The notes below the pieces were generated by a model. It saw nothing but the letters and a program-made list of their open reading frames with translations. It searched no databases and was not told where the DNA came from. From assembly GCA_963803415.1 (NCBI GenBank), contig CAWDMI010000002.1, positions 1,536,369 to 1,600,368 of the forward strand: a stretch of DNA of 64,000 nucleotides. Reading direction: 5' to 3'. Numbering within the stretch: position 1 is the stretch's first letter; each line of letters begins with the position of its first letter. Below, one piece after another: positions 7,405-61,302 of the stretch. Origin of the DNA: an uncultured delta proteobacterium (GTDB lineage: Bacteria > Desulfobacterota > Binatia > UBA9968). The translations under genes and the position numbers were made by a program.

Positions 7405-7419
7405 TGGCATGGGAGTTGC
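7405..7419 (+). promoter_or_regulatory. Candidate sigma-54 (-24/-12) promoter upstream of glnK-amt
   Basis: TGGCAT-N5-TTGC (ttggcatgggagttgcc) lies 118 nt upstream of the glnK ATG. glnK-amtB operons are classically sigma-54/NtrC-dependent in other bacteria. Confidence 0.4.
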
Positions 7420-51974: not shown

Positions 51975-54098
51975 TTGAATGGGCCCGAACCGGAGTTTAT
52001 TCTTAGGTCCATGGACGGCCAAATGACCGAGCGACGGGAAGGGAATCCTTTACAGAGCCTGTATCAGACTCTTCTCGAGATTTCACAAGCGATCGCATCG
52101 CACCGAGACATCGACGAGCTTTTTCACGAGCTTGCCCCGCGCCTTCACCGGGTCGTACAATTCGAGTTTGCCAATCTGATACTCTACGAGCCGACACGCA
52201 AGGTGATGAAGTCCCATGTCCTGGAGACGCCCGATCCCGGCTACGTTTGCCCGGCAGGGGAATGTCCGATGGAAACACCTGGAGGTTGGGTCTGGCAAAC
52301 GCAAGAGCCGTGGGTCATCTCTGATCTGAACAGCGACACGCGGTTTCCCGACTTAGGACGGTGGCTCTGTGATCGGGGAGTTCGATCGCTGTGTGTCGTT
52401 CCCGTTACAACGGCGTTAAGAAAACTTGGCGCTCTGGCATTCGGGAGCATGCACGAAGGTGCCTACTCGGAGGCCGACGTGACCTTTCTTCAACAGGTTG
52501 CTCGACAAGTGGCCGTCGCGGTAGACAACGCGCTCAACTTCGAGCAGGCGCAATCCGTGCAGCAACAGCTGAAAGAGGAACGGGACCGTCTAAGGTTGTT
52601 GTTGGAAGTTAACAATACAGTCGTCTCCGTGCTCGATTTGCACGAACTGCTCAACGCGGTTTCTGCTTCGTTGCGGCGTCTGGTGCCGCATGAATATGCG
52701 AGTCTCTCTCTTTACGATGCGGAAACCCAAAGTTTACAGATTCACGCTCTGGATTTCCCGGTCAGTAAGGGCTTGCTTCAGGAAGGTCTCTCGATACCCG
52801 TCGAGGGGTCACCCACGGGTCGGGCGATAACTACACGCCAACCCGTTTTCATTACTCGCAGCGACGTCGAGCAATTCGGTTCTGATGTGGCCCGGCGCAT
52901 TCTTGCCGAAGGTCTCAAATCTGCCTATTGTTTGCCCTTGATTTCTCATGGACGTCCCCTCGGCACGCTTGTGGTAGCGAGTCTACGCGAGGAGACTTTT
53001 CCCGAGAAGGATGCGGAATTGCTTCAACACGTCGCCAATCAAATCGCGATTGCGGTAGAAAACTCGCTTGCTTTTCGTCGGGTTGTGGAACGGGCGAACA
53101 AACTCGGCGAGGAAAGGCTTTACTTACAGGATGAAATCCGCACCGAATACAACTTCGAAGAGATCATCGGTGAGAGTTCCGTCTTGAAACGGATCTTGGA
53201 ACAACTGGAGACCGTGGCGCCGACAGACTCGACAATTTTGATTCAGGGTGAGACCGGCACCGGCAAGGAATTGATTGCCCGGGCCATCCACAATCTGAGC
53301 GCGCGCCGGGAACGAACTCTTGTGAAGGTTAACTGTGCCGCGATTCCTACCGGCTTGCTTGAAAGCGAGTTGTTCGGGCACGAAAAGGGCGCGTTCACCG
53401 GCGCCATTGCGCAACGAGTTGGTCGGTTCGAATTGGCGCACCATGGCACGCTCTTTCTCGACGAGGTGGGAGACATTCCCCTCCAACTCCAGCCCAAGCT
53501 CCTGCGTGTTCTCCAGGAACAAGAGTTTGAGCGGCTGGGCAGCGCGCGAACGATTCGCGTGGATGTTCGCGTGGTCGCGGCCACGAACGCGGATCTGGCG
53601 CAAAAAGTGTCGGACAATCAATTTCGTCGCGACCTCTATTACCGACTGAACGTCTTTCCGATCACGATCCCTTCGCTGCGCGAGCGGCCGGAGGACATTC
53701 CTCTGCTCGTGCGCTACTTCGCGCAAAAATACGCGCGACGCATGAAAAAGCCGATTGACTCCATTCCTGCCAGGGCGATGACGGCCTTGACGGAATACCG
53801 TTGGCCCGGCAACGTGCGCGAGCTCGAAAACTTCATCGAGCGCGCGGTCATTCTTTCCCGCGATGCCGAACTCGAAATTCCGCTCGCTGAGCTCAAGCAA
53901 ACGGCGAGACCGCTTGCGGTTGGCCCGGTCAATGGTCTCGCTACTTTGGAGCATGCCGAACGCGAGCACATTGTGCGCGTCCTCGGCGAAACCAATTGGG
54001 TGATTGGCGGGTCCGAGGGCGCCGCCGCTCGACTCGGCATGAAGCGGACCACTCTTCAGTCGCGCATGCGAAAGCTAGGAATCACGCGTCCCCAATAA
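51975..54098 (+). CDS. Sigma-54-dependent transcriptional activator (bacterial enhancer-binding protein) with two N-terminal GAF domains and C-terminal Fis-type HTH
   Basis: GAF-GAF region; AAA+ sigma-54 interaction domain with Walker A (GETGTGKE), GAFTGA loop ([15 protein letters not shown]), Walker B (TLFLDEVGD) and arginine finger region; terminal HTH ([21 protein letters not shown]). Confidence 0.92.
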
Positions 54099-54103
54099 AG
54101 CCC

Positions 54104-54127
54104 ATATTTCGGCGCCTGCCGATAAAT
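54104..54127 (+). promoter_or_regulatory. Candidate enhancer (upstream activator sequence) dyad, copy 1: ATATTTCGGCGCCTGCCGATAAAT
   Basis: Imperfect palindrome TCGGC-N4-GCCGA flanked by AT-rich arms. The 17-nt core ATATTTCGGCGCCTGCC is repeated exactly at 58704. In both copies it lies about 115-120 bp upstream of a perfect -24/-12 element. Confidence 0.55.
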
Positions 54128-54232
54128 CGTCAGACTTCTTTCGTCACACTCCTTAGCAGCCCCAAAGGTGAGCGACCTGTAACTTTCCCGATTCGCGCGG
54201 TTAATCCTGTTTCGCACCAACGATCCGCGCCT

Positions 54233-54247
54233 TGGCACAGTGCTTGC
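54233..54247 (+). promoter_or_regulatory. Sigma-54 promoter (TGGCAC-N5-TTGC), copy 1
   Basis: ttGGCACagtgcTTGCt matches the RpoN consensus perfectly. A strong RBS GAGGAGG and the ATG at 54284 follow. Confidence 0.75.
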
Positions 54248-54283
54248 TCGATTTTCAGTAGAACGAGAGAGGAGGTGAATCTA

Positions 54284-54433
54284 ATGAAAATTGCAACGAC
54301 ATTTTTTGCAGCGCTGCTTCTGACCGCCAGCCTCCTGGTGACTGCTGCTGCCGCAGCCCCTGAAGATTGGAGCGAGCAAGCCTGGCACGCTCACATCGAG
54401 GAGCTGCGCCAGCTTAAGCAAGACCAGGAATAA
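54284..54433 (+). CDS. Small secreted/hydrophobic protein (49 aa), paralog A
   Basis: MKIATTFFAALLLTASLLVTAAAAA|PEDWSEQAWHAHIEELRQLKQDQE. RBS GAGGAGG. The N-terminal 13 residues are conserved with the 49-aa protein at 58881. Confidence 0.6.
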   Translation: MKIATTFFAALLLTASLLVTAAAAAPEDWSEQAWHAHIEELRQLKQDQE

Positions 54434-54453
54434 GCGGTGCAATGGCCTAACAA

Positions 54454-54484
54454 GCATGAGGAGGGGCAACGCCCCTCCTCATGC
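54454..54484 (+). terminator. Stem-loop (13-bp perfect stem) downstream of small gene A; probable terminator with weak U-tract
   Basis: GCATGAGGAGGGG-caacg-CCCCTCCTCATGC, followed by CGTTGTG. Confidence 0.5.
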
Positions 54485-54556
54485 CGTTGTGCCGCGTGCG
54501 CTGAATCAAGAATACAATAGACAAATAGGGGAACATAATTCCTGAAGGGAGAAGTT

Positions 54557-54718
54557 GATGCTTAGGAAACCGCTGAATCTGGAGCCGGTAGTCGTTTCGG
54601 TCAACAATCCGGTAGCGCTAAAGCACGGAGACTCGGTTTACTGTTGGTGTGATCCGATCGTCGAGGTGGATGAAAATGGACGGGAAGTAGTGGTCCATAA
54701 GGAAGTATCCTGGAACTG
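54557..54718 (+). CDS. Hypothetical small protein (53 aa)
   Basis: Good RBS (AAGGGAGAAG-N4-ATG). Sequence MLRKPLNLEPVVVSVNNPVALKHGDSVYCWCDPIVEVDENGREVVVHKEVSWN. Confidence 0.35.
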
Positions 54719-54765
54719 ACCAAATCATCAACAGTCGGAGTGATGATTTGTAAGGAGCAATGCTT

Positions 54766-55116
54766 ATGAGTACGTGGCAACTTATTTTTCTCCAGAGCAG
54801 GGCGAATAATTGCGCCTATGACGAAGATGATTTACCGGCGCAAAATTGGGCCTGGCCCCAAGGGACCTGGTTCCAAAAGCGTCGGCATTACCTGCGCGAG
54901 ACCCAGCGAAAATACGCCCGCCAAAATAGACCGAGCCCACCTTCAAACAGGTTTAGGGAAGTAGCGTTTGTCGATCAAGGAGGAGAGTGTCCTATGAGTT
55001 TTTCGATGGTGCCATTGCCTCTCGCCGAAAGGGAAATTCCGGCTCAGGCACGAGAGGCTTTGCTGGAAAACCGCCGTCGCGGAGCTCCTCATGCAAGAAT
55101 ATGGACTGAGCTGTAG
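54766..55116 (+). CDS. Hypothetical protein (about 116 aa)
   Basis: ORF preceded by TAAGGAGC, with no recognisable domain. Confidence 0.3.
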   Translation: MSTWQLIFLQSRANNCAYDEDDLPAQNWAWPQGTWFQKRRHYLRETQRKYARQNRPSPPSNRFREVAFVDQGGECPMSFSMVPLPLAEREIPAQAREALLENRRRGAPHARIWTEL

Positions 55117-55239
55117 CGAAGCCGGTCAGCTCGTGGAAGTCGCCGCGTGCGACTTGGGTAGATAGGGGATCCTGCAATGCCGCAAGGCGCTGCAGGGCGT
55201 GATGGTTTCGCGAGAAGGTTAGGAGCGCGGAGGAAAAAA

Positions 55240-55805
55240 ATGAAGCAACGACGTTTGGGCAAAAATGGCCCGATGGTTTCGGCCATGGGTCTTGGATGTA
55301 TGGGCATGTCGGAGTTCTATGGATCGCGCGATGAACCGAGTCGATCGCGACGATCCATCGGGCGCTCGACCTCGGCATCGGATTTCTCGACACCGCGGAC
55401 ATCTATGGCATGGGCGCCAATGAAGAGCTTGTGGGTAAGGCCATCAAAGGCTGGTGGGATAAAGTGATGCTCGCGACCAAGTTTGGCATCGTTCGCACTA
55501 CCGATCTACGAATAGAGCTAAAGCGCAGCCCCATTTTAGTTTCCAAGATGCAAACTTCGTTGGACGAGGAAGCCGACGTTATCGCGGCGCTCATGGAGGG
55601 GTTTCTTTGCCGCGCAGCCCTATCGATAACTCCGGACATCAACGACGCCATCATTTCGGCACCTGCCAATAACTCGGCACAGTTTCTTCGTCACATCCAA
55701 AAGCATTCAAAAATGCGACCGCCGGAACTCCGTGAATCTGTAACATTTCCTGAGTCCTCTGACTGTCAAGGAGCACTTGGCACGAGACTTGTTGAGATTC
55801 CCTAG
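55240..55805 (+). pseudogene. Aldo/keto reductase pseudogene (frameshifted and C-terminally degenerate)
   Basis: The AKR N-terminus [32 protein letters not shown] switches frame (a 1-nt loss next to GATGAA) into ...[35 protein letters not shown]...KFGIVRT. Family similarity then stops. Confidence 0.65.
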
Positions 55806-55853
55806 AGAGAAAGCCGAAAGGCCTTCGATCCGGAAAAATACAAAGGAGGATTT

Positions 55854-56585
55854 ATGTCGTCACTTGAAAGGAAATCTGCACTGGTTACGGGCAGCTCTCG
55901 CGGTATCGGCCGGGCGATCGCCGAACGTCTGGCTGCCGACGGAGCGGCGGTCGTTATCAACTACACGCACAATCGGGAACCGGCCCAGGAAGTGGTCGAC
56001 GGCATCGTTGCGAGGGGCGGTAAGGCCATAGCCGTCCAGGGCGACGTTTCGAAGCCAGCTGAAGTGCGGCGCTTGTTCAATGAAGCGGAGAGAGCGGTTG
56101 GGCAGCTCGACATTGTTGTAGCCAACGCCGGCGTGTATCTGTCGAAACCGCTCATCGAAAACACCGAAGAAGACTACGACGCGGTGTTCAATATCAACAC
56201 TAGAGGCATGTTCTTCACGTTACAGGAGGCCGCCCGTCGCGTGCGCGATGGGGGTCGGATCATCGCCGTTTCGACCGGAGGCACAAAGATGCCGTTTCCA
56301 AACGCCTCGCTTTACCTCGGGAGCAAGGCGGCGGTGGAACAATTCGTTCGTTCGCTTTCGCGTGAAATCGGTCCGCGGAACGTTACGGTGAACGTCCTCT
56401 CACCGGGATTCACTGCCACGGATATGCTCAGCAGTGACGAGATCCGTCACTATGGCGCCTCTCTATCGCCGTTCAACCGCATCGGCACGCCGCAGGAAGT
56501 GGCCGACGTGTCCGCATTCCTTGCGAGCGACGCCGCGCGCTGGGTGACCGGGCAGAATCTGCAAGCCGGCGGCGGGGTTGTGTGA
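55854..56585 (+). CDS. SDR-family NAD(P)-dependent oxidoreductase (FabG-like)
   Basis: TGSSRGIGRAIA cofactor motif, a NAG-type segment (VANAGV) and catalytic YxxxK (YLGSKAAVE). Length 243 aa. Confidence 0.9.
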   Translation: MSSLERKSALVTGSSRGIGRAIAERLAADGAAVVINYTHNREPAQEVVDGIVARGGKAIAVQGDVSKPAEVRRLFNEAERAVGQLDIVVANAGVYLSKPLIENTEEDYDAVFNINTRGMFFTLQEAARRVRDGGRIIAVSTGGTKMPFPNASLYLGSKAAVEQFVRSLSREIGPRNVTVNVLSPGFTATDMLSSDEIRHYGASLSPFNRIGTPQEVADVSAFLASDAARWVTGQNLQAGGGVV

Positions 56586-56923
56586 GACAGCGCGGCAGAA
56601 ATAGGACTACGAAAGGTCCCTATGACCAGAACCCATGTCGATATAGCGATACTGGTACCAAAGGCCGATGAACACGTCGCTTTGGCCCAAGCCTTTGGAT
56701 GGGGCCTCACAGGCTCAGACGGAAAAATTCGTTCCCAAGGCGCCTTCAAGGTAACGTCGTACCCGACGCGGGGGAAAGCTCGCCCCGAATGCCAGAGATG
56801 AGTTGTTCCGCTGTTCCCGCCGGCACATATTTCAACCCTTTCGCGAAGTGAAAAATATGCTTGGGTGGACGCCTTTTTCCTAACTTATTGAATGCATTAT
56901 TGACTTCAGCCAAACTTCTGGAT

Positions 56924-58346
56924 CTAACCAATTGTCTCAGTAATCCAAATTCGATCAGAACAGTATCGCCTGCATTCGCGGGGTCTGTCGTCGGAATGTC
57001 CTCCTGGCCCCACGCCATTCACCCAAGACGCCAGCAAAAAGCGCGCTTCCTGCTCAGTCGGAATAACCTTTTCCCTGTGTTTATAGAGTATCAAAAGCTC
57101 ACGGTAGGTTAGTAAACTCTGCGTAGTTTGATAGGCAGAAGCTTTGGAGGTTAGAAGTTCCCGAAACCGTTTGAATTCTCGTTCTTCTGAATCCGCGAGA
57201 TCGGAAATAACTTTCTTTGCGATATAATCGTGGCTGACCTCATAATACGGATCAATGTGTCTCACCAACCTCAAGTCTATTAATTTTTCTAGCGCGCCTT
57301 CACAGACAAAATTCTCCAGGCCCGTGTCCGATGCGATTTCCGACAAAGTTCGTTGGGCCTTTACTCCGTAGCTTCTCACAAGTGATATAAGCACAGCTCG
57401 GATGCGCCCTTCACTATCCTGAGCGTACTGTAAAAGCCGATTGAGGTAACCTCCGATTACGCCTTCCATGCCGCCGGCTTCTTGGTAGTTCTGAATCATG
57501 TATGGTTTTTGAGCCTTTTGCGTGGAAGACCAAATGTGCTCAATTAACATTTGGAGGTAGGGAGGGTAGACACCGGAAAAACCCGCTACACTGCTTGATA
57601 CTAATAGATCACGCGGAATGCGTTTCTCTTCAACATCCCTTAGGGCGAAGGACACCGACAAATCTGTGGCAATCCTTTTTATTCCCCCAGGCATACTCGT
57701 CATTTATACCGCTTAGGTAGTGTCGGGTGAGACCTTTGGGAGAGCCGCTGATCTGTTGCCAGTACTGTCCGAGACGGCCTTCTAAGTCGGCACGATAAGA
57801 GATTAGAACGCGCAATGATGGGTCGTCCAATTCATATATCGACCGAAGTCCTTCGAGTAGTTGTGTTGTCTCATGGACGTCCTGAGCGGCGAGCACGTCT
57901 TCAAACTGATCAATAATCAACAGCACACCCGTGTTTTTCAGCGCGGAACTTGTCTCAGCAAGCAGAGGAAGAAGCGGTCCCTTGTACTTAGCCGGCCCTT
58001 CGAAAATCGTTGTCTGAATCTTCTGAGCTATATCCGTGCAGGGAAGTCCTAATGGCCGAGTGTAAATCGGCCTCATTTTTAAATCGGCACAGGCTGGAAT
58101 AAGACCTGCGTGAATCAATGATGCCTTACCTACGCCAGAATCTTCAAGTAATAGAACGATCGGAGAGGCAGCAAGTTGATCAGTTAAGTCTGACGTATCT
58201 CGTTGTCGGCCAAAAAGATAATACCGATCGCTGCTCGTAAGAAAATCAATTCCCAGCGGCTCTTTGAGTGACTTGGCTGCTGCACAAAGGCAGGAAACCG
58301 ATCTGATATCTTCCGGTACACATCTCGGACAATGGAAAAAAGAAGA
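56924..58346 (-). pseudogene. STAND-class P-loop NTPase, disrupted (at least two frame breaks), low-GC
   Basis: My own extension of the 57630..58118 frame upstream reads ...YLFGRQRDTSDLTDQLAASPIVLLLEDSGVGKASLIHAGL (Walker A GxxGxGKxSL). The tracked ORF contains the Walker B VLLIIDQFEDVL. The C-terminal helical part (56924..57703) sits in another frame, with a junction near 57670. An upstream stop lies at 58347. The locus is AT-richer than its surroundings. Confidence 0.6.
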
Positions 58347-58703
58347 TCATCGGCTGATTTGAATTGAGCGCAAGTGTGTTTTTTAGCTTTTTCTTTGAGC
58401 CGTTTGAGCCCTGACTTAGCCAGAGGAGTGGGTTCTTTGTATTGCTGCCCCAGGTGGAGTCCTCTTCGATTAAATAGAGTAAGATATCGCTGACAGTTCC
58501 TGTGCTCAGCGCATGATTCGCTTCATCCAACTCAACATCCGTTATGGATTTGCCCGCGCTAGAGGCTACGCTTCCGTAACGGTGCGCGTAGATGCTACCC
58601 CCCTTTAACGACTTCCAGTCGGAACTCTTCGAGGCCATCAGCTACACAACTTGTTACGCGACGACTACTCAAAGCCGAACGTCACTGGTCCAAGAAGAGC
58701 CGA

Positions 58704-58725
58704 TATTTCGGCGCCTGCCAATATG
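58704..58725 (+). promoter_or_regulatory. Candidate enhancer (upstream activator sequence) dyad, copy 2: ATATTTCGGCGCCTGCCAATAT
   Basis: Same 17-nt core as at 54104, with an imperfect dyad. Its centre lies about 116 bp upstream of the -24 element at 58829. Confidence 0.55.
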
Positions 58726-58828
58726 GTGGCAGATTTTCTTCGGCACAAGCCCTAATAGCCTCGTTCGGCGCAATCGTTAATGCCTCTAATTTTGCGCACT
58801 TGTGGGCCCTTTCTGGTGTCGGTGCCTT

Positions 58829-58843
58829 TGGCACTGTGATTGC
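58829..58843 (+). promoter_or_regulatory. Sigma-54 promoter (TGGCAC-N5-TTGC), copy 2
   Basis: tTGGCACtgtgaTTGCt, followed by RBS AAGGAG and the ATG at 58881. Confidence 0.75.
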
Positions 58844-58880
58844 TCACAGCATATGTAGAAAGAAAAAGGAGATGATTCCA

Positions 58881-59030
58881 ATGAAGATCGACACATCGTT
58901 TTTCGCGGCCCTGGTCCTGGCTGTGACCACTCTATGGGCGCGGATGGCGGTTCAAGGAGTTGAACAGGCAGTTGTCTCGACAGCGCTTGAGTATTGCCTG
59001 AAGCGCATCAAGGTTCGGGTTGGGAAGTAA
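58881..59030 (+). CDS. Small hydrophobic protein (49 aa), paralog B
   Basis: MKIDTSFFAALVLAVTTLWARMAVQGVEQAVVSTALEYCLKRIKVRVGK. It has the same length as paralog A and a conserved N-terminus (MKI.T.FFAAL.L), but diverges at the DNA level. Confidence 0.6.
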   Translation: MKIDTSFFAALVLAVTTLWARMAVQGVEQAVVSTALEYCLKRIKVRVGK

Positions 59031-59050
59031 GGAATCGAGGGAAAACTTTC

Positions 59051-59464
59051 GTGAGAGTCAAAAATAAGATCTTTTTCATCGTTTTCATCCTATTGGAGTT
59101 TATTGGTCGAGTATTCTTTCCCGGATACGCCGCCGCTGAATCCCCAAAAGCGATCGGCGAGGTCGTGCGTAAGGAAATCTTTCCGACTGGCGCGGCACCG
59201 GAAAAGAAACGTCTTAATTTAGTTTCATCTTTCGCGTTGACGGTCGACGGAGAGAGGGTGGGCAGCATCGCTCTATACGATGACCCCGCAACCGAAAGAC
59301 CTGCTGATTATTTAGAGCTTTACGACCACGCAGGGAACCTCCTGGCCGTCAGTTGGTTCGATCGATTCGGCATCGAAAGGACCGCTGTCGATCGCGGGAT
59401 CCTGGAGGATGCCGACAAACCCGAGGGAATCTTTGTCATTCTTTTGGCTGGCGAATCCCTATGA
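59051..59464 (+). CDS. Secreted hypothetical protein (signal peptide, about 137 aa)
   Basis: Proposed GTG start. Hydrophobic signal KIFFIVFILLEFIGRVFFPGYAAAES, with no recognisable domain. It lies immediately downstream of small gene B in the same orientation. Confidence 0.45.
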   Translation: MRVKNKIFFIVFILLEFIGRVFFPGYAAAESPKAIGEVVRKEIFPTGAAPEKKRLNLVSSFALTVDGERVGSIALYDDPATERPADYLELYDHAGNLLAVSWFDRFGIERTAVDRGILEDADKPEGIFVILLAGESL

Positions 59465-59479
59465 GGTTCCTGTTGACTT

Positions 59480-59746
59480 ATGTTGAAAATCACGACTCAC
59501 ACTGACGCGACAGCAACTACTTTGGAACTCGAGGGAAAATTAGCGGGACCCTGGGTGCAAGAACTTGAACGCTGCTGGCAGGAAGCAGTCCAGGTCAATC
59601 GGCCGGTGAAGGTACGGTTGAAGGTAGTGACGTTCATCGATGGCGCGGGGAGAAAACTTCTGGCCGAGATGCATCGGCAGGGAGCCGAACTCATAGCGGA
59701 TGGATGCATGACCAAAGCCATCACAGAGGAGATCGAGAGAGGATGA
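59480..59746 (+). CDS. STAS-domain protein (anti-sigma-factor antagonist / SpoIIAA-like), short
   Basis: 88 aa. Pattern TLELEGKLAGPWVQELE...VRLKVVTFIDGAGRKLLAEM is typical of STAS domains. No partner anti-sigma kinase is in the window. Confidence 0.55.
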   Translation: MLKITTHTDATATTLELEGKLAGPWVQELERCWQEAVQVNRPVKVRLKVVTFIDGAGRKLLAEMHRQGAELIADGCMTKAITEEIERG

Positions 59747-59875: not shown

Positions 59876-60766
59876 ATGGAATACACGATGATCGCTAGCA
59901 GTCTTAGAGTGTCGCGCATCGTACTGGGGACTTGGTCGATGGGCGGTTCGATGTGGGGCGGCAGCGACGAAGGGGAAGCAATTCGTACGATTCACGCGGC
60001 CCTGGAGCAAGGCATCAACCTGATCGATACCGCTCCCGTCTATGGATTCGGCAAGTCGGAAGAAATAGTGGGGCGTGCTCTGGCTGAACGGGGGCGTCGC
60101 GAGGACGTGATCCTTGCGACCAAGGTTGGACTTCAGTGGCGCGATTGGGAGGTTGTGCGCAACTCATCCCGGCAACGGATTTTGAGCGAGATAGAGGACT
60201 CATTGCGGCGCCTCAAGACGAGTTATATTGACCTCTACCAGGTTCACTGGCCGGACCCGCTGGTCCCGATTGAGGAAACCGCCGAAGTGTTGGCCGCCCT
60301 CTACCGGCAAGGCAAGATTCGCGCGATTGGGGTGAGCAATTATTCGCCGCGGCAGATGGAGGAGTTCCGGGCCGTCGCTCCCCTTCATAGCACGCAACCA
60401 CCGTATAATCTGTTCGAAAGGGAGATCGAGCGCGATGTGCTCCCGGCCGCGCGACAAACGCATCTCGGCGTCCTTGCCTATGGGGCGCTGTGCCGCGGCC
60501 TTTTGAGCGGCCGCATGCGGGCGAACTCTCAATTCCAAGGAGATGATCTGCGCCGTATTGATCCGAAGTTTCAACCGCCCCGGTACGCGGAGTATCTTAA
60601 AGCGGTCGATCGCTTAAATCAGTTTGCGCAACACAATTATGGCAAGGGAGTTCTCGAGCTGGCTGTCCGCTGGTTGCTCGGCCTGAGGCAAGCGCCTGTA
60701 CGGCAGCCCGCTATTGGGCTCGGGAAGCACGTCGCGCGGTCTGTTCGACAGTGCAAGAAATGTTGA
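59876..60766 (+). CDS. Aldo/keto reductase family oxidoreductase
   Basis: AKR signatures (LGTWSMGG, LIDTAPVYGFG, YIDLYQVHWPD, IRAIGVSNY). The C-terminal 40 residues are atypical and may hide a frame problem. Confidence 0.85.
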   Translation: MEYTMIASSLRVSRIVLGTWSMGGSMWGGSDEGEAIRTIHAALEQGINLIDTAPVYGFGKSEEIVGRALAERGRREDVILATKVGLQWRDWEVVRNSSRQRILSEIEDSLRRLKTSYIDLYQVHWPDPLVPIEETAEVLAALYRQGKIRAIGVSNYSPRQMEEFRAVAPLHSTQPPYNLFEREIERDVLPAARQTHLGVLAYGALCRGLLSGRMRANSQFQGDDLRRIDPKFQPPRYAEYLKAVDRLNQFAQHNYGKGVLELAVRWLLGLRQAPVRQPAIGLGKHVARSVRQCKKC

Positions 60767-60855
60767 CGGCCAAGAAGCATTTTGCGACCGTGGCGAGCGC
60801 GGATCGAGGGAGATAGGCGGGGAGAGGCCAATATTGGACGGACATGGGGGCATAA

Positions 60856-61302
60856 ATGAATCCAGCCGATCCAGTTTATCGAGAGCCAAAGGCTCTCGAT
60901 CTAATCTTGAATAAGGCTTTCGGTGTTCTGGTGGGGCTTGGCCTTGGCCTCCGCCACAACTACCTCGTGCAAGTACGGGGCCGCAGCACGGGCCACCTGT
61001 ATTCCACCCCAATCGATCTGCTGGAGTTCAACGGAAAACGTTTTCTCGTCGCCGGCCGCGGGCGCACACAATGGGTTCGTAACGCTGAGGCTGCGGGCGA
61101 AGTCACTTTAAAGAAAGGTCGCAAGCGACAGAACTTCCGCATTCGAATCGTGCCAAACGGGGAGAAACCCGAAATCTTGAAGGCGTATCTTGATCGCTTC
61201 AAATTGACCGTTCAACGGTATTTTCCGGTGCGAGCGGGTTCTGAAGCCTCAGCGTTTGCCGAGATAGCTAAACGGTATCCAGTTTTTGAATTGCTTCCGT
61301 AA
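60856..61302 (+). CDS. Deazaflavin(F420)-dependent nitroreductase-family protein (DUF385/Ddn-like)
   Basis: Pattern [48 protein letters not shown] matches the Ddn-family split barrel (TTGRKSG...WYRNL.ANP.V). Confidence 0.7.

Follow-up and report, generated by a model that had tools for sequence, protein, structure and literature searches.

The 64-kb window (the whole stretch of DNA analysed) contains, on the plus strand, a gene for a sigma-54 enhancer-binding protein (52011–54098) and three units, each with half-sites arrayed around TTTCGGC-N4-GCCGA and, 123–126 nt downstream, a -24/-12 promoter. Unit 1 leads to a 49-aa ORF, Unit 3 to a short-chain dehydrogenase, and Unit 2 to a second 49-aa ORF, a 137-aa protein and a STAS-like protein. 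The initial annotation had counted two units; the third lies before the SDR gene at 55854–56585.

The activator ORF, first drawn at 51975–54098, was confirmed by Pfam in all its domains (two GAF, Sigma54_activat, AAA_lid_14 and HTH_8), with GAFTGA present. The mechanical ORF opens at a TTG (51975), and the start is likely the ATG at 52011 or 52023; the public gene call (691 aa) uses the latter. The best NCBIfam match was the FhlA model (residues 179–689; 590 bits, below the cut-off of 830), and the closest solved relatives were NifA and ZraR. No rpoN gene was found within the 64-kb window. Among the orthologues adjoining the same motif (75–89% identical), Cys76, Cys81, Cys124, Cys303 and Cys438 were invariant, and the helix-turn-helix was nearly so. 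Of the cysteines, those in GAF domain 1 (CPAGECP) may act as sensor residues.

The Unit 1 site (54099–54153, GCCCATATTTCGGCGCCTGCCGATAAATCGTCAGACTTCTTTCGTCACA) begins immediately 3' of the activator stop codon, which is 8 nt before TTTCGGC. It consists of TCGGC/GCCGA half-sites repeated about every 9 bp, with a TTCGTCACA box downstream, and is followed by promoter P1 (54233–54247, TGGCACAGTGCTTGC). The Unit 3 site (55646–55700, GCCATCATTTCGGCACCTGCCAATAACTCGGCACAGTTTCTTCGTCACA), missing from the first list, is also present in L001 and L002 (L numbers designate related loci), and precedes P3 (55778–55792, TGGCACGAGACTTGT). The Unit 2 site (58698–58752, GCCGATATTTCGGCGCCTGCCAATATGGTGGCAGATTTTCTTCGGCACA) precedes P2 (58829–58843, TGGCACTGTGATTGC). 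P1 and P2 match TGGCAC-N5-TTGC exactly, as first reported. P3 ends in TTGT instead of TTGC, and the same TTGT variant precedes the dehydrogenase genes of L011 and L013. The distances from TTTCGGC to TGGCAC are 126, 124 and 123 nt in the three units, similar but not identical as had been claimed.

The 17-mer ATATTTCGGCGCCTGCC occurs exactly at 54104–54120 and, one position off from the earlier reading of 58704, at 58703–58719. A third copy with three mismatches is at 55651–55667. At up to three mismatches, the window gave these three matches against 0.29 expected, and none of 100 shuffles reached three. The dyad described at first is real, and its palindromic core is perfect in other loci (e.g. 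TTTCGGCACGTGCCGA). The promoter pattern by itself was found seven times in the window against 4.3 expected, which is not above chance. The significance of the units therefore comes from the pairing of motif and promoter.

Small ORF 1 (54284–54433, 49 aa, MKIATTFFAALLLTASLLVTAAAAAPEDWSEQAWHAHIEELRQLKQDQE) has a signal-peptide-like N-terminus and an acidic tail. A search of 5.8 billion proteins found just one cluster besides its own, 88% identical. Orthologues in L024, L025 and L091 are all exactly 49 aa long, each 3' of a GAF activator gene. Compared with L024, codons 1–25 contained seven synonymous and no non-synonymous changes; codons 26–49 contained two and six, respectively. The JGI name for this protein, 'Spy/CpxP family', was not supported, because there was no Pfam match and no significant NCBIfam match (only LolB, far below cut-off).

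Small ORF 2 (58881–59030, 49 aa) belongs to a conserved uncharacterised family with the consensus MKIExxFLAALLLxGTxLxARxAVQGVEQALLSTAIEW… and at least 129 clusters (90% identity). The 120 clusters listed were 45–99 aa long, none with a Pfam domain and all but one unnamed or hypothetical. The product is predicted to be a single long helix (AlphaFold2, pLDDT 80, residues 5–48), along which the alignment showed invariant or near-invariant residues. In 23 units, a member of the family directly follows the module.

The two small ORFs had been taken as paralogues under purifying selection. Over their full length this was not supported, as only the promoter, the 5' UTR and about 20 codons are common to them. 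Their likeness was limited to residues 1–18 (11 of 18 identical), the HMM of the small ORF 2 family covered only residues 1–21 of small ORF 1, and no frameshifted leftover of that family's C-terminus was found in the small ORF 1 region. The equal length of 49 aa is coincidental, since most members of the small ORF 2 family have 54–64 aa.

These ORFs could be non-functional leaders, translated or untranslated, with real promoters that serve only the larger genes downstream. The single other cluster for small ORF 1, the excess of non-synonymous changes in its C-terminal half and the lack of any small ORF in Unit 3 would fit this, and the common N-terminus could stem from duplication of a promoter cassette. 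On the other hand, both small ORFs are preceded, at the right distance, by strong ribosome-binding sites, and the small ORF 2 family is large and constrained along its helix. The frame, length and stop position of small ORF 1 were kept in three lineages, and its first 25 codons changed only synonymously. We consider the leader explanation unlikely. As first proposed, the small ORFs appear to be genuine conserved genes, with relatives found for both.

A hairpin (54454–54484) was found by folding 3' of small ORF 1. Its presence agreed with the initial annotation, but the stem is of 14 bp instead of 13 bp. It has no U-tract and was not called on the plus strand by a simple terminator scan. Its stem was kept by paired changes in L024 and L091, and it may terminate transcription or affect RNA stability.

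Behind the hairpin, on the plus strand, lies a conserved 53-aa ORF (54558–54719, …CWCDPIVEVDENGREVVVHKEVSWN), which probably belongs to the P1 transcription unit. The exact protein is present in public collections; it had no Pfam or NCBIfam match. It was conserved in L002, L024 and L091, and in L039 it forms a fusion with a small-ORF family member. The next segment (54766–55170) encodes a conserved protein (MSTWQLIFLQSRANN…) and, frameshifted in the window, a small ORF (MSFSMVPLPL…ALLENRRR…) that represents a third family. Neither had a Pfam match, and intact homologues of the genes occur in L018, L024, L010, L063 and L087. In L010, L063 and L087, the third-family small ORF is directly 3' of the same motif and promoter. 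A 5' fragment of an aldo/keto reductase gene (55241–55506) follows, the gene being cut by a deletion of 2.2 kb when compared with the near-identical contig L002.

The gene behind P3 encodes a short-chain dehydrogenase/reductase (Pfam adh_short_C2, E 2.7e-61), and SDR-class genes were found behind the same module in L009, L011 and L013.

Small ORF 2 is followed by the gene for the 137-aa protein (59051–59464, …VYDDPATERPADYLELYD…SWFDRFGIER…), which has a beta-sheet core preceded by a signal or membrane helix at the N-terminus. Its 291 clusters included none with a Pfam domain. The structural model was weak (pLDDT 58, beta core at residues 56–114), and a Foldseek search of the PDB gave no significant match (best E 0.07). 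The 88-aa STAS-like protein (59480–59746) fell below the cut-offs of Pfam STAS_2 (E 0.0011; 19.5 bits against 29.2) and of TIGR00377 (E 0.0027); the JGI name is MlaB component. A sequence search found no solved relative. STAS-like proteins lay behind the module in 20 units. The second unit had been described as continuing into a secreted and a STAS protein; both genes are present, and the 137-aa protein has a hydrophobic N-terminal helix. Genes for an aldo/keto reductase, 3'-truncated relative to L002 by a deletion of about 213 nt at 60680, and an F420H2 quinone-reductase-like protein (59876–61302, Pfam) may be distal genes of the P2 unit.

A scan for motif and promoter together was run on 185,579 species genomes. 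It gave 20 matches, against about two estimated by chance, and 15 were true: 14 in Binatia or 'Deltaproteobacteria bacterium' MAGs and one in a contig labelled Candidatus Udaeobacter. Metagenomes were scanned with the motif alone, leaving the promoter out of the query, and gave 69 loci; the central dyad was the anchor of every motif search. A -24/-12 element lay 95–160 nt downstream of 49 of the 56 same-orientation metagenome sites, compared with 2.2% of random stretches from the same loci. Nearly all the true motif matches were from Candidatus Binatia. Many loci carried two or three units, and most units had no activator gene upstream. In relatives 89% identical, the motif, promoter and ribosome-binding site were kept and the spacer diverged; likewise, P1 was kept in L024 and L091 and the spacer 5' of it diverged. 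The link of activator, repeated upstream site and -24/-12 promoters recurs far outside the window, which supports the single circuit first proposed. The architecture, its conservation and the statistical association of the motif with the promoter and with the activator gene were all observed in these data.

The motif might be bound by another activator or repressor encoded elsewhere, its adjacency to this activator gene being incidental. Similar helix-turn-helix domains are common where bacteria have many sigma-54 activators, and the genome was examined over 64 kb. No second activator is present in the window, however, and the activator stop codon lay 8–13 nt (mostly 8–9 nt) 5' of the motif in at least 17 independent units. 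In other loci, it was 8–9 nt before TTTCGGC in 14 of the 16 activator-adjacent units and 13 nt in one. The motif was also at the usual enhancer distance from the promoter in those 49 of 56 cases. This alternative is slightly less probable than the leader explanation.

It is quite improbable that the units spread as a MITE-like repeat or other mobile or recombining promoter cassette, with no selection for a regulatory function. Three copies do occur within a span of 4.7 kb, the surrounding region has deletions, pseudogenes and (in the sister contig) transposase fragments, and the gene after the activator-proximal module differs among genomes (a small ORF, SDR, MOSC, methyltransferase or MBL-fold protein). 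Against this, neither terminal repeats nor target duplications were seen, and the pattern is the same in genomes whose activators differ by 11–25%. Overall identity among the three units is only about 67%, and is concentrated in the half-site array, promoter and ribosome-binding site, which indicates selection on function and not recent copying.

Least probable is a role of the motif at the RNA level, either in a leader structure or at the 3' end of the activator mRNA, as a terminator or other 3' element. Short hairpins can form between half-sites, the activator stop codon directly precedes the motif, and the simple scan listed terminator-like hairpins within the Unit 2 array. Against this, the palindrome changes across loci were not compensatory, most units lack the upstream activator gene, and the window had no Rfam match. 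The motif also occurs inverted, in a second group of loci, and its position is 5' of the transcription start predicted for its target. The uncompensated changes and the inverted occurrence suggest a DNA site.

We therefore favour, with good though not full confidence, the interpretation that the locus belongs to a sigma-54 regulon conserved across the uncultured soil class Candidatus Binatia. For binding, activation, signal and physiological role, we infer the following. The adjacent GAF-GAF/AAA+/HTH activator would bind the TCGGC/GCCGA array with its spacing of about 9 bp (site consensus GCCnnTATTTCGGCRCCTGCCGATAnnTCGGCAga…TTCGTCAcA). A signal, possibly a small molecule, would act through the GAF domains and assemble the activator into an active ATPase. 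By DNA looping, this would open sigma-54 RNA polymerase complexes at the -24/-12 promoters about 110–125 bp downstream. P1 would then drive the 49-aa signal-peptide-like ORF and probably also the small ORFs and the aldo/keto reductase remnant behind it, and P3 the short-chain dehydrogenase. P2 would drive the single-helix small protein, the 137-aa exported protein and the STAS-like protein, possibly on into the aldo/keto reductase.

The circuit had been thought to be dedicated to tiny peptides. This was not the case, as Unit 3 precedes a dehydrogenase gene and the module in relatives is followed by genes for thioredoxin, SDR, glyoxalase, ABM, tautomerase, YCII, MOSC, FMN reductase, methyltransferase and MFS proteins, the targets being mostly enzymes of redox metabolism and detoxification and efflux proteins. 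Since most targets are of these kinds, a response to redox, electrophile or xenobiotic stress would be the likeliest role, which we propose tentatively from gene content. The core operon proteins (small helix, 137-aa, STAS-like and 'LFQPDTLL') have no known function.

The architecture had been regarded as without precedent. An activator gene adjoining its own upstream sites and sigma-54 promoters is, on the contrary, the canonical layout for enhancer-binding proteins, and the circuit is an undescribed regulon of this well-known, classical kind. FhlA of the E. coli formate regulon (hyc, hyp, fdhF and hydN) has the same layout and size (N-terminal GAF-containing sensor, AAA+, HTH; 691 aa). In FhlA-type logic, one ligand-sensing activator serves several nearby sigma-54 promoters with upstream sites about 100 bp away, as proposed here. 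The activator differs from FhlA in scoring under its equivalog cut-off, and the targets include no hydrogenase or formate dehydrogenase genes.

NorR, which senses nitric oxide and controls the detoxification operon norVW, likewise joins a GAF sensor to AAA+ and HTH domains. Several neighbouring sites 5' of its sigma-54 promoter are bound by NorR, an arrangement that the half-site array would parallel. The present activator has two GAF domains instead of one, scored 386.6 against the NorR cut-off of 476, and has a different site sequence; no flavorubredoxin or NO reductase genes were seen. NifA (GAF, AAA+, HTH) is the closest solved full-length relative (9qq6, E 9e-89). It too has a single GAF domain; the score here was 450.9 against the equivalog cut-off of 528.85, and there are no nif genes.

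ZraSR-ZraP and PspF-pspABCDE respond to envelope stress through sigma-54 and drive small envelope proteins. As at this locus, genes for small exported or membrane-anchored proteins adjoin the activator gene and have sigma-54 promoters. ZraR, on the other hand, has a receiver domain and PspF has no sensor domain, in place of the GAF domains here, and the targets here are mostly cytoplasmic enzymes.

In the literature searched, no paper joined 'Binatia' with 'sigma-54' and none dealt with a Binatota regulon. Sigma-54 regulons have been reconstructed by comparative genomics in Clostridiales (PMC6615313), with the same combination of an orthologous activator group, a common upstream motif and -24/-12 promoters before varied metabolic genes. 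That study includes neither the present motif nor the small-protein families. It gives the FhlA upstream site as the TGT-N10-12-ACA type (PMC6615313), whereas the sites here are built of TCGGC/GCCGA half-sites.

The regulon architecture in the window is real with high confidence. It consists of three units, each with an upstream array of half-sites, a -24/-12 promoter and target genes, all on the plus strand. Promoters P1 (54233) and P2 (58829) read TGGCAC-N5-TTGC exactly, and P3 (55778) reads TGGCAC-N5-TTGT. The -24/-12 signature, with GG and GC doublets ten bases apart in the TGGCAC-N5-TTGC context upstream of a gene, was found, and its elements were conserved in relatives. Promoter-like matches at 7405, 18574, 20992 and 44297 were rejected, as they lacked the upstream motif and occurred at chance level. 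The enhancer-binding protein gene, the two motif copies, the two exact promoters and the two 49-aa ORFs of the initial annotation were all present. Its count of two units was too low, as a third unit precedes a short-chain dehydrogenase gene (55854-56585).

The 17-mer ATATTTCGGCGCCTGCC was present in exact copies at 54104 and 58703, and in a third copy with three mismatches at 55651. These three matches compare with 0.29 expected in the window, and no shuffled sequence reached three. The array consensus was GCCnnTATTTCGGCRCCTGCCGATAnnTCGGCAga…TTCGTCAcA, which reads as a series of four or five half-sites (TCGGC/GCCGA) spaced by about 9 bp. The dyad reported initially corresponds to the center of this array (TCGGC-N4-GCCGA), and some metagenome loci contained a perfectly palindromic core, TTTCGGCACGTGCCGA. 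Substitutions in the arms of these palindromes were uncompensated. This pattern is a better fit to a protein-binding DNA site than to an RNA structure. An Rfam scan of the whole window gave no matches, and single palindromes in the window, including the region upstream of the activator gene, gave no matches above chance. The hairpin described after the first 49-aa ORF was confirmed; its 14-bp stem is kept by paired changes in both relatives, L024 and L091.

In an alignment of the three units, only the upstream array, the -24/-12 element and the ribosome-binding site were conserved in all three; units 1 and 2 additionally shared the first codons. Between units 1 and 2, DNA similarity extended from the array across the promoter and the 5' UTR and into the first codons.

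Recurrence of the module was tested across 185,579 species, each represented by a single genome, with the pattern TTTCGGCNCCTGCC-N95-125-TGGCAC-N5-TTG. The scan gave 20 matches, compared with about two estimated by chance, and 15 of them carried the whole extended array. Of these 15 true matches, 14 were in metagenome-assembled genomes bearing the name Candidatus Binatia or 'Deltaproteobacteria bacterium', and the remaining one was on a contig labelled Candidatus Udaeobacter; the window thus very probably belongs to Binatia (phylum Binatota). The other five matches (L007, L008, L012, L016 and L017) lacked the rest of the array and were judged to be chance matches. Locus L015 (DASQUN010000209.1), whose contig had been assigned to a Candidatus Udaeobacter bin (Verrucomicrobiota), carried one complete unit with the small ORF and the 131-aa protein; either mis-binning of a Binatia contig or lateral transfer would account for it.

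Metagenomes were scanned with the upstream motif alone, which left the promoter as an independent test. This yielded 69 loci, many of which contained two or three units. A strict TGGCAC-N5-TTG[CT] was present 114-138 nt after TTTCGGC (mode 122) in 37 of the 65 sites with sufficient downstream DNA. When up to two mismatches were tolerated outside the GG and GC doublets, a promoter was found at 95-160 nt in 49 of 56 same-orientation sites, against a background of 2.2% for randomly chosen stretches of these loci.

In a second group of nine loci (L026, L033, L051, L072, L079, L081, L082, L084 and L090), the array formed an almost perfect double palindrome, GCCGATATTTCGGCACCTGCCGATATTTCGGC, in inverted orientation with respect to the target, and a TGG-N9-TTGC element lay about 125 nt from it. 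The targets in this group were an ORF in which a STAS-like N-terminal part is joined to an outer-membrane efflux (OEP) domain and, after it, genes for a HlyD-type protein and a cytidylate-kinase-like protein. At about 7400-7560 of L090 (plus orientation of the motif), tandem repeats of about 66 nt (…GGGCGAACACAAGGTTCGCCCCTACGATGGCCACATGGGATACTGGTTCTGCC…) adjoined the motif.

The only sigma-54 activator encoded within the 64-kb window is the product of the plus-strand gene ending at 54098; no rpoN was found in the same 64 kb. The public gene call starts it at the ATG at 52023, giving 691 aa. The protein contains two GAF domains, a sigma-54 interaction domain (PF00158, E 5.1e-73, residues 397-563), an AAA lid and a Fis-type helix-turn-helix (PF02954 HTH_8, 23.5 bits against a Pfam cut-off of 22). 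Nine full-length orthologues were 75-89% identical to it. The GAFTGA loop was intact across their alignment, and a 17-residue segment of the C-terminal helix-turn-helix was nearly invariant. Also invariant were Cys76 and Cys81 (CPAGECP, in GAF domain 1), Cys124, Cys303 and Cys438.

The motif started 8-13 nt (mostly 8-9 nt) past the stop codon of an orthologue of this activator in at least 17 units. We infer from the sequences that the array would be bound by the adjacent GAF-GAF activator.

The best family model for the activator was FhlA (NCBIfam PRK15429), and the closest solved chain was a NifA. The FhlA score was 590.2 bits, below the equivalog cut-off of 830, so that the activator did not qualify as an FhlA orthologue. 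Hydrogenase-3 and formate dehydrogenase genes, the targets of FhlA, were absent downstream in the window and in about 80 related units. The upstream site of FhlA has been described as of the TGT-N10-12-ACA type (PMC6615313), which differs from the array of TCGGC/GCCGA half-sites found here.

To survey the targets, the ORFs found in the first 3 kb behind each of about 80 units were clustered, and Pfam was run on representatives. A recurrent operon was composed of a small helix protein of the small ORF 2 family (23 units), an approximately 134-aa protein carrying a signal or membrane helix (15 units), a STAS-like protein (20 units), a thioredoxin (14 units) and a protein of about 130 aa without assigned function, 'LFQPDTLL…' (24 units). 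Other targets included SDR, glyoxalase/VOC, ABM monooxygenase, tautomerase, YCII, DUF4440/SnoaL and MOSC proteins, an NADPH-dependent FMN reductase, a methyltransferase, an MBL-fold protein, an MFS_3 transporter, a zinc alcohol dehydrogenase or quinone-oxidoreductase-like protein, and a fusion of cNMP, glutaredoxin and pyridine-nucleotide-disulphide-oxidoreductase domains. A catalase was found farther downstream. The earlier suggestion of a circuit dedicated to tiny peptides was thus too narrow, with enzymes and transporters also behind the module. The regulon is nevertheless unusually rich in conserved small proteins without known function.

Small ORF 1 (54284-54433, unit 1) and small ORF 2 (58881-59030, unit 2) both encode 49 aa and are alike in the first 18 residues only. 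Small ORF 2 matched its family profile, 'MKIExxFLAALLL…VQGVEQALLSTAIEW', over essentially its full length (90 bits, residues 1-47). The family comprised at least 129 clusters at 90% identity. Those listed (120) were 45-99 aa long, none with a Pfam domain and nearly all unnamed or hypothetical. G26 was invariant, and M1, K2, I3, A9, T16, L18, R21, Q25, E28, A30 and E37 were nearly so. The predicted structure of small ORF 2 was one long helix (pLDDT 80). Its 90%-identity cluster also listed an unrelated 422-aa glycosyltransferase-like protein from Logan, which looks like a clustering artefact.

Small ORF 1, on the other hand, matched the same profile with 15 bits over residues 1-21 only, short of a full-length match. 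A frameshift origin of its C-terminus from the family sequence was rejected, as no other frame matched. From this partial match, the lack of a frame with the missing part and the shared cassette DNA, small ORF 1 is best read as a derivative in which the regulatory cassette and the hydrophobic N-terminal segment were retained and a different tail was acquired.

Orthologues of small ORF 1 in three related loci (L024, L025 and L091) were exactly 49 aa long and lay downstream of a GAF activator gene. Compared with L024, the first 25 codons showed seven synonymous and no non-synonymous changes, and the tail two synonymous and six non-synonymous changes, mostly conservative. As judged from sequence comparison, small ORF 1 is a maintained gene. 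It gave no Pfam match at E up to 0.01, and in NCBIfam only a sub-threshold LolB match. The JGI name 'Spy/CpxP family' was unsupported by any LTXXQ-type profile match, and a Spy/CpxP/ZraP fold was rejected, as 49 aa with about 24 mature residues is too short.

A 53-aa 'CWCDP' ORF (54558-54719) is probably part of the regulon as well. In L039, a 128-aa ORF located 1229 nt downstream of that locus's first unit joins a small-ORF family sequence to this 53-aa domain. The fusion matches two separate neighboring genes in the window, which suggests that the small ORF 1 and 'CWCDP' proteins act together.

A third small-ORF family (about 55-61 aa, 'MKFSLIPLL…ALRENRL…', pattern 'M[KS]FS..PLL…ALRENR…YGL.C.EAG.L..V..C') was represented in the window by a frameshifted copy (54996-55170). 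Intact copies were direct targets behind the motif and promoter in three loci (L010, L063 and L087).

Pfam and NCBIfam gave nothing usable for small ORFs 1 and 2, the 53-aa ORF, the 137-aa protein (59051-59464), the 'LFQPDTLL' protein or the third small-ORF family. The 137-aa protein had 291 clusters and no Pfam domain. Its structural model was weak (pLDDT 58, with a beta core at residues 56-114), and a Foldseek search of the PDB with this weak model gave only non-significant LolA/ependymin-like matches (best E 0.07). The STAS-like protein (59480-59746) matched STAS_2 with E 0.0011, at 19.5 bits against a Pfam cut-off of 29.2, and TIGR00377 at 17.6 bits against an NCBIfam cut-off of 53.45. In the second group of loci, a homologue matched a STAS profile with E 0.00018. 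Sequence search found no PDB relative of the STAS-like protein.

The circuit is a canonical enhancer-binding-protein regulon; it adds a regulon, and no new architecture or principle. Binatia are abundant, uncultured bacteria of soil and sediment. Within the literature that could be searched, no described Binatia sigma-54 or Binatota regulon was found, and no paper on Binatia gene regulation. The locus provides a precise cis-element with an assigned candidate activator. The list of co-regulated genes predicts a redox or detoxification response, and co-regulation hints at the function of at least three conserved unannotated small-protein families. Going by gene content only, a role in the response to redox stress, electrophiles or xenobiotics can be proposed tentatively.

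A broader reading, improbable when taken as a whole, is that of an unrecognised stress response of Binatota, with a cysteine double-GAF sensor, an envelope-linked module in the first operon, and small proteins as signalling parts. In such a response, the double-GAF activator may sense redox or electrophile damage. The first operon, with the single-helix protein, the exported 137-aa protein, the STAS-like protein, thioredoxin and the 'LFQPDTLL' protein, may be a new envelope-linked module for sensing or feedback, which could be likened to PspA, PspB and PspC acting on PspF. The small-protein families under this type of promoter may likewise be functional signalling parts, not passengers.

A near-identical JGI metagenome contig, L002, was about 97% identical to the window and had the same three units. 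Relative to it, the window had a deletion of 2.2 kb at 55506 (L002 3375-5596) that ended 145 bp before unit 3. In this segment, L002 encodes a 229-aa protein, a carboxymuconolactone-decarboxylase-family protein, the C-terminal part of an aldo/keto reductase (3' part of the gene) and the start of a 53-aa ORF. The window also lacked about 213 nt at 60680 (L002 11657-11869), which truncated the aldo/keto reductase gene at 59876-60766 to 296 aa, compared with 333 aa in L002.

On the minus strand, the nSTAND1 NTPase gene (56924-58638) was broken into three ORFs, and is therefore probably a pseudogene. In place of this stretch, L002 had a 374-aa gene and two Transposase_mut fragments. These nSTAND1 fragments and the replacement genes in L002 indicated that the stretch separating units 3 and 2 is a rearrangement hot spot.
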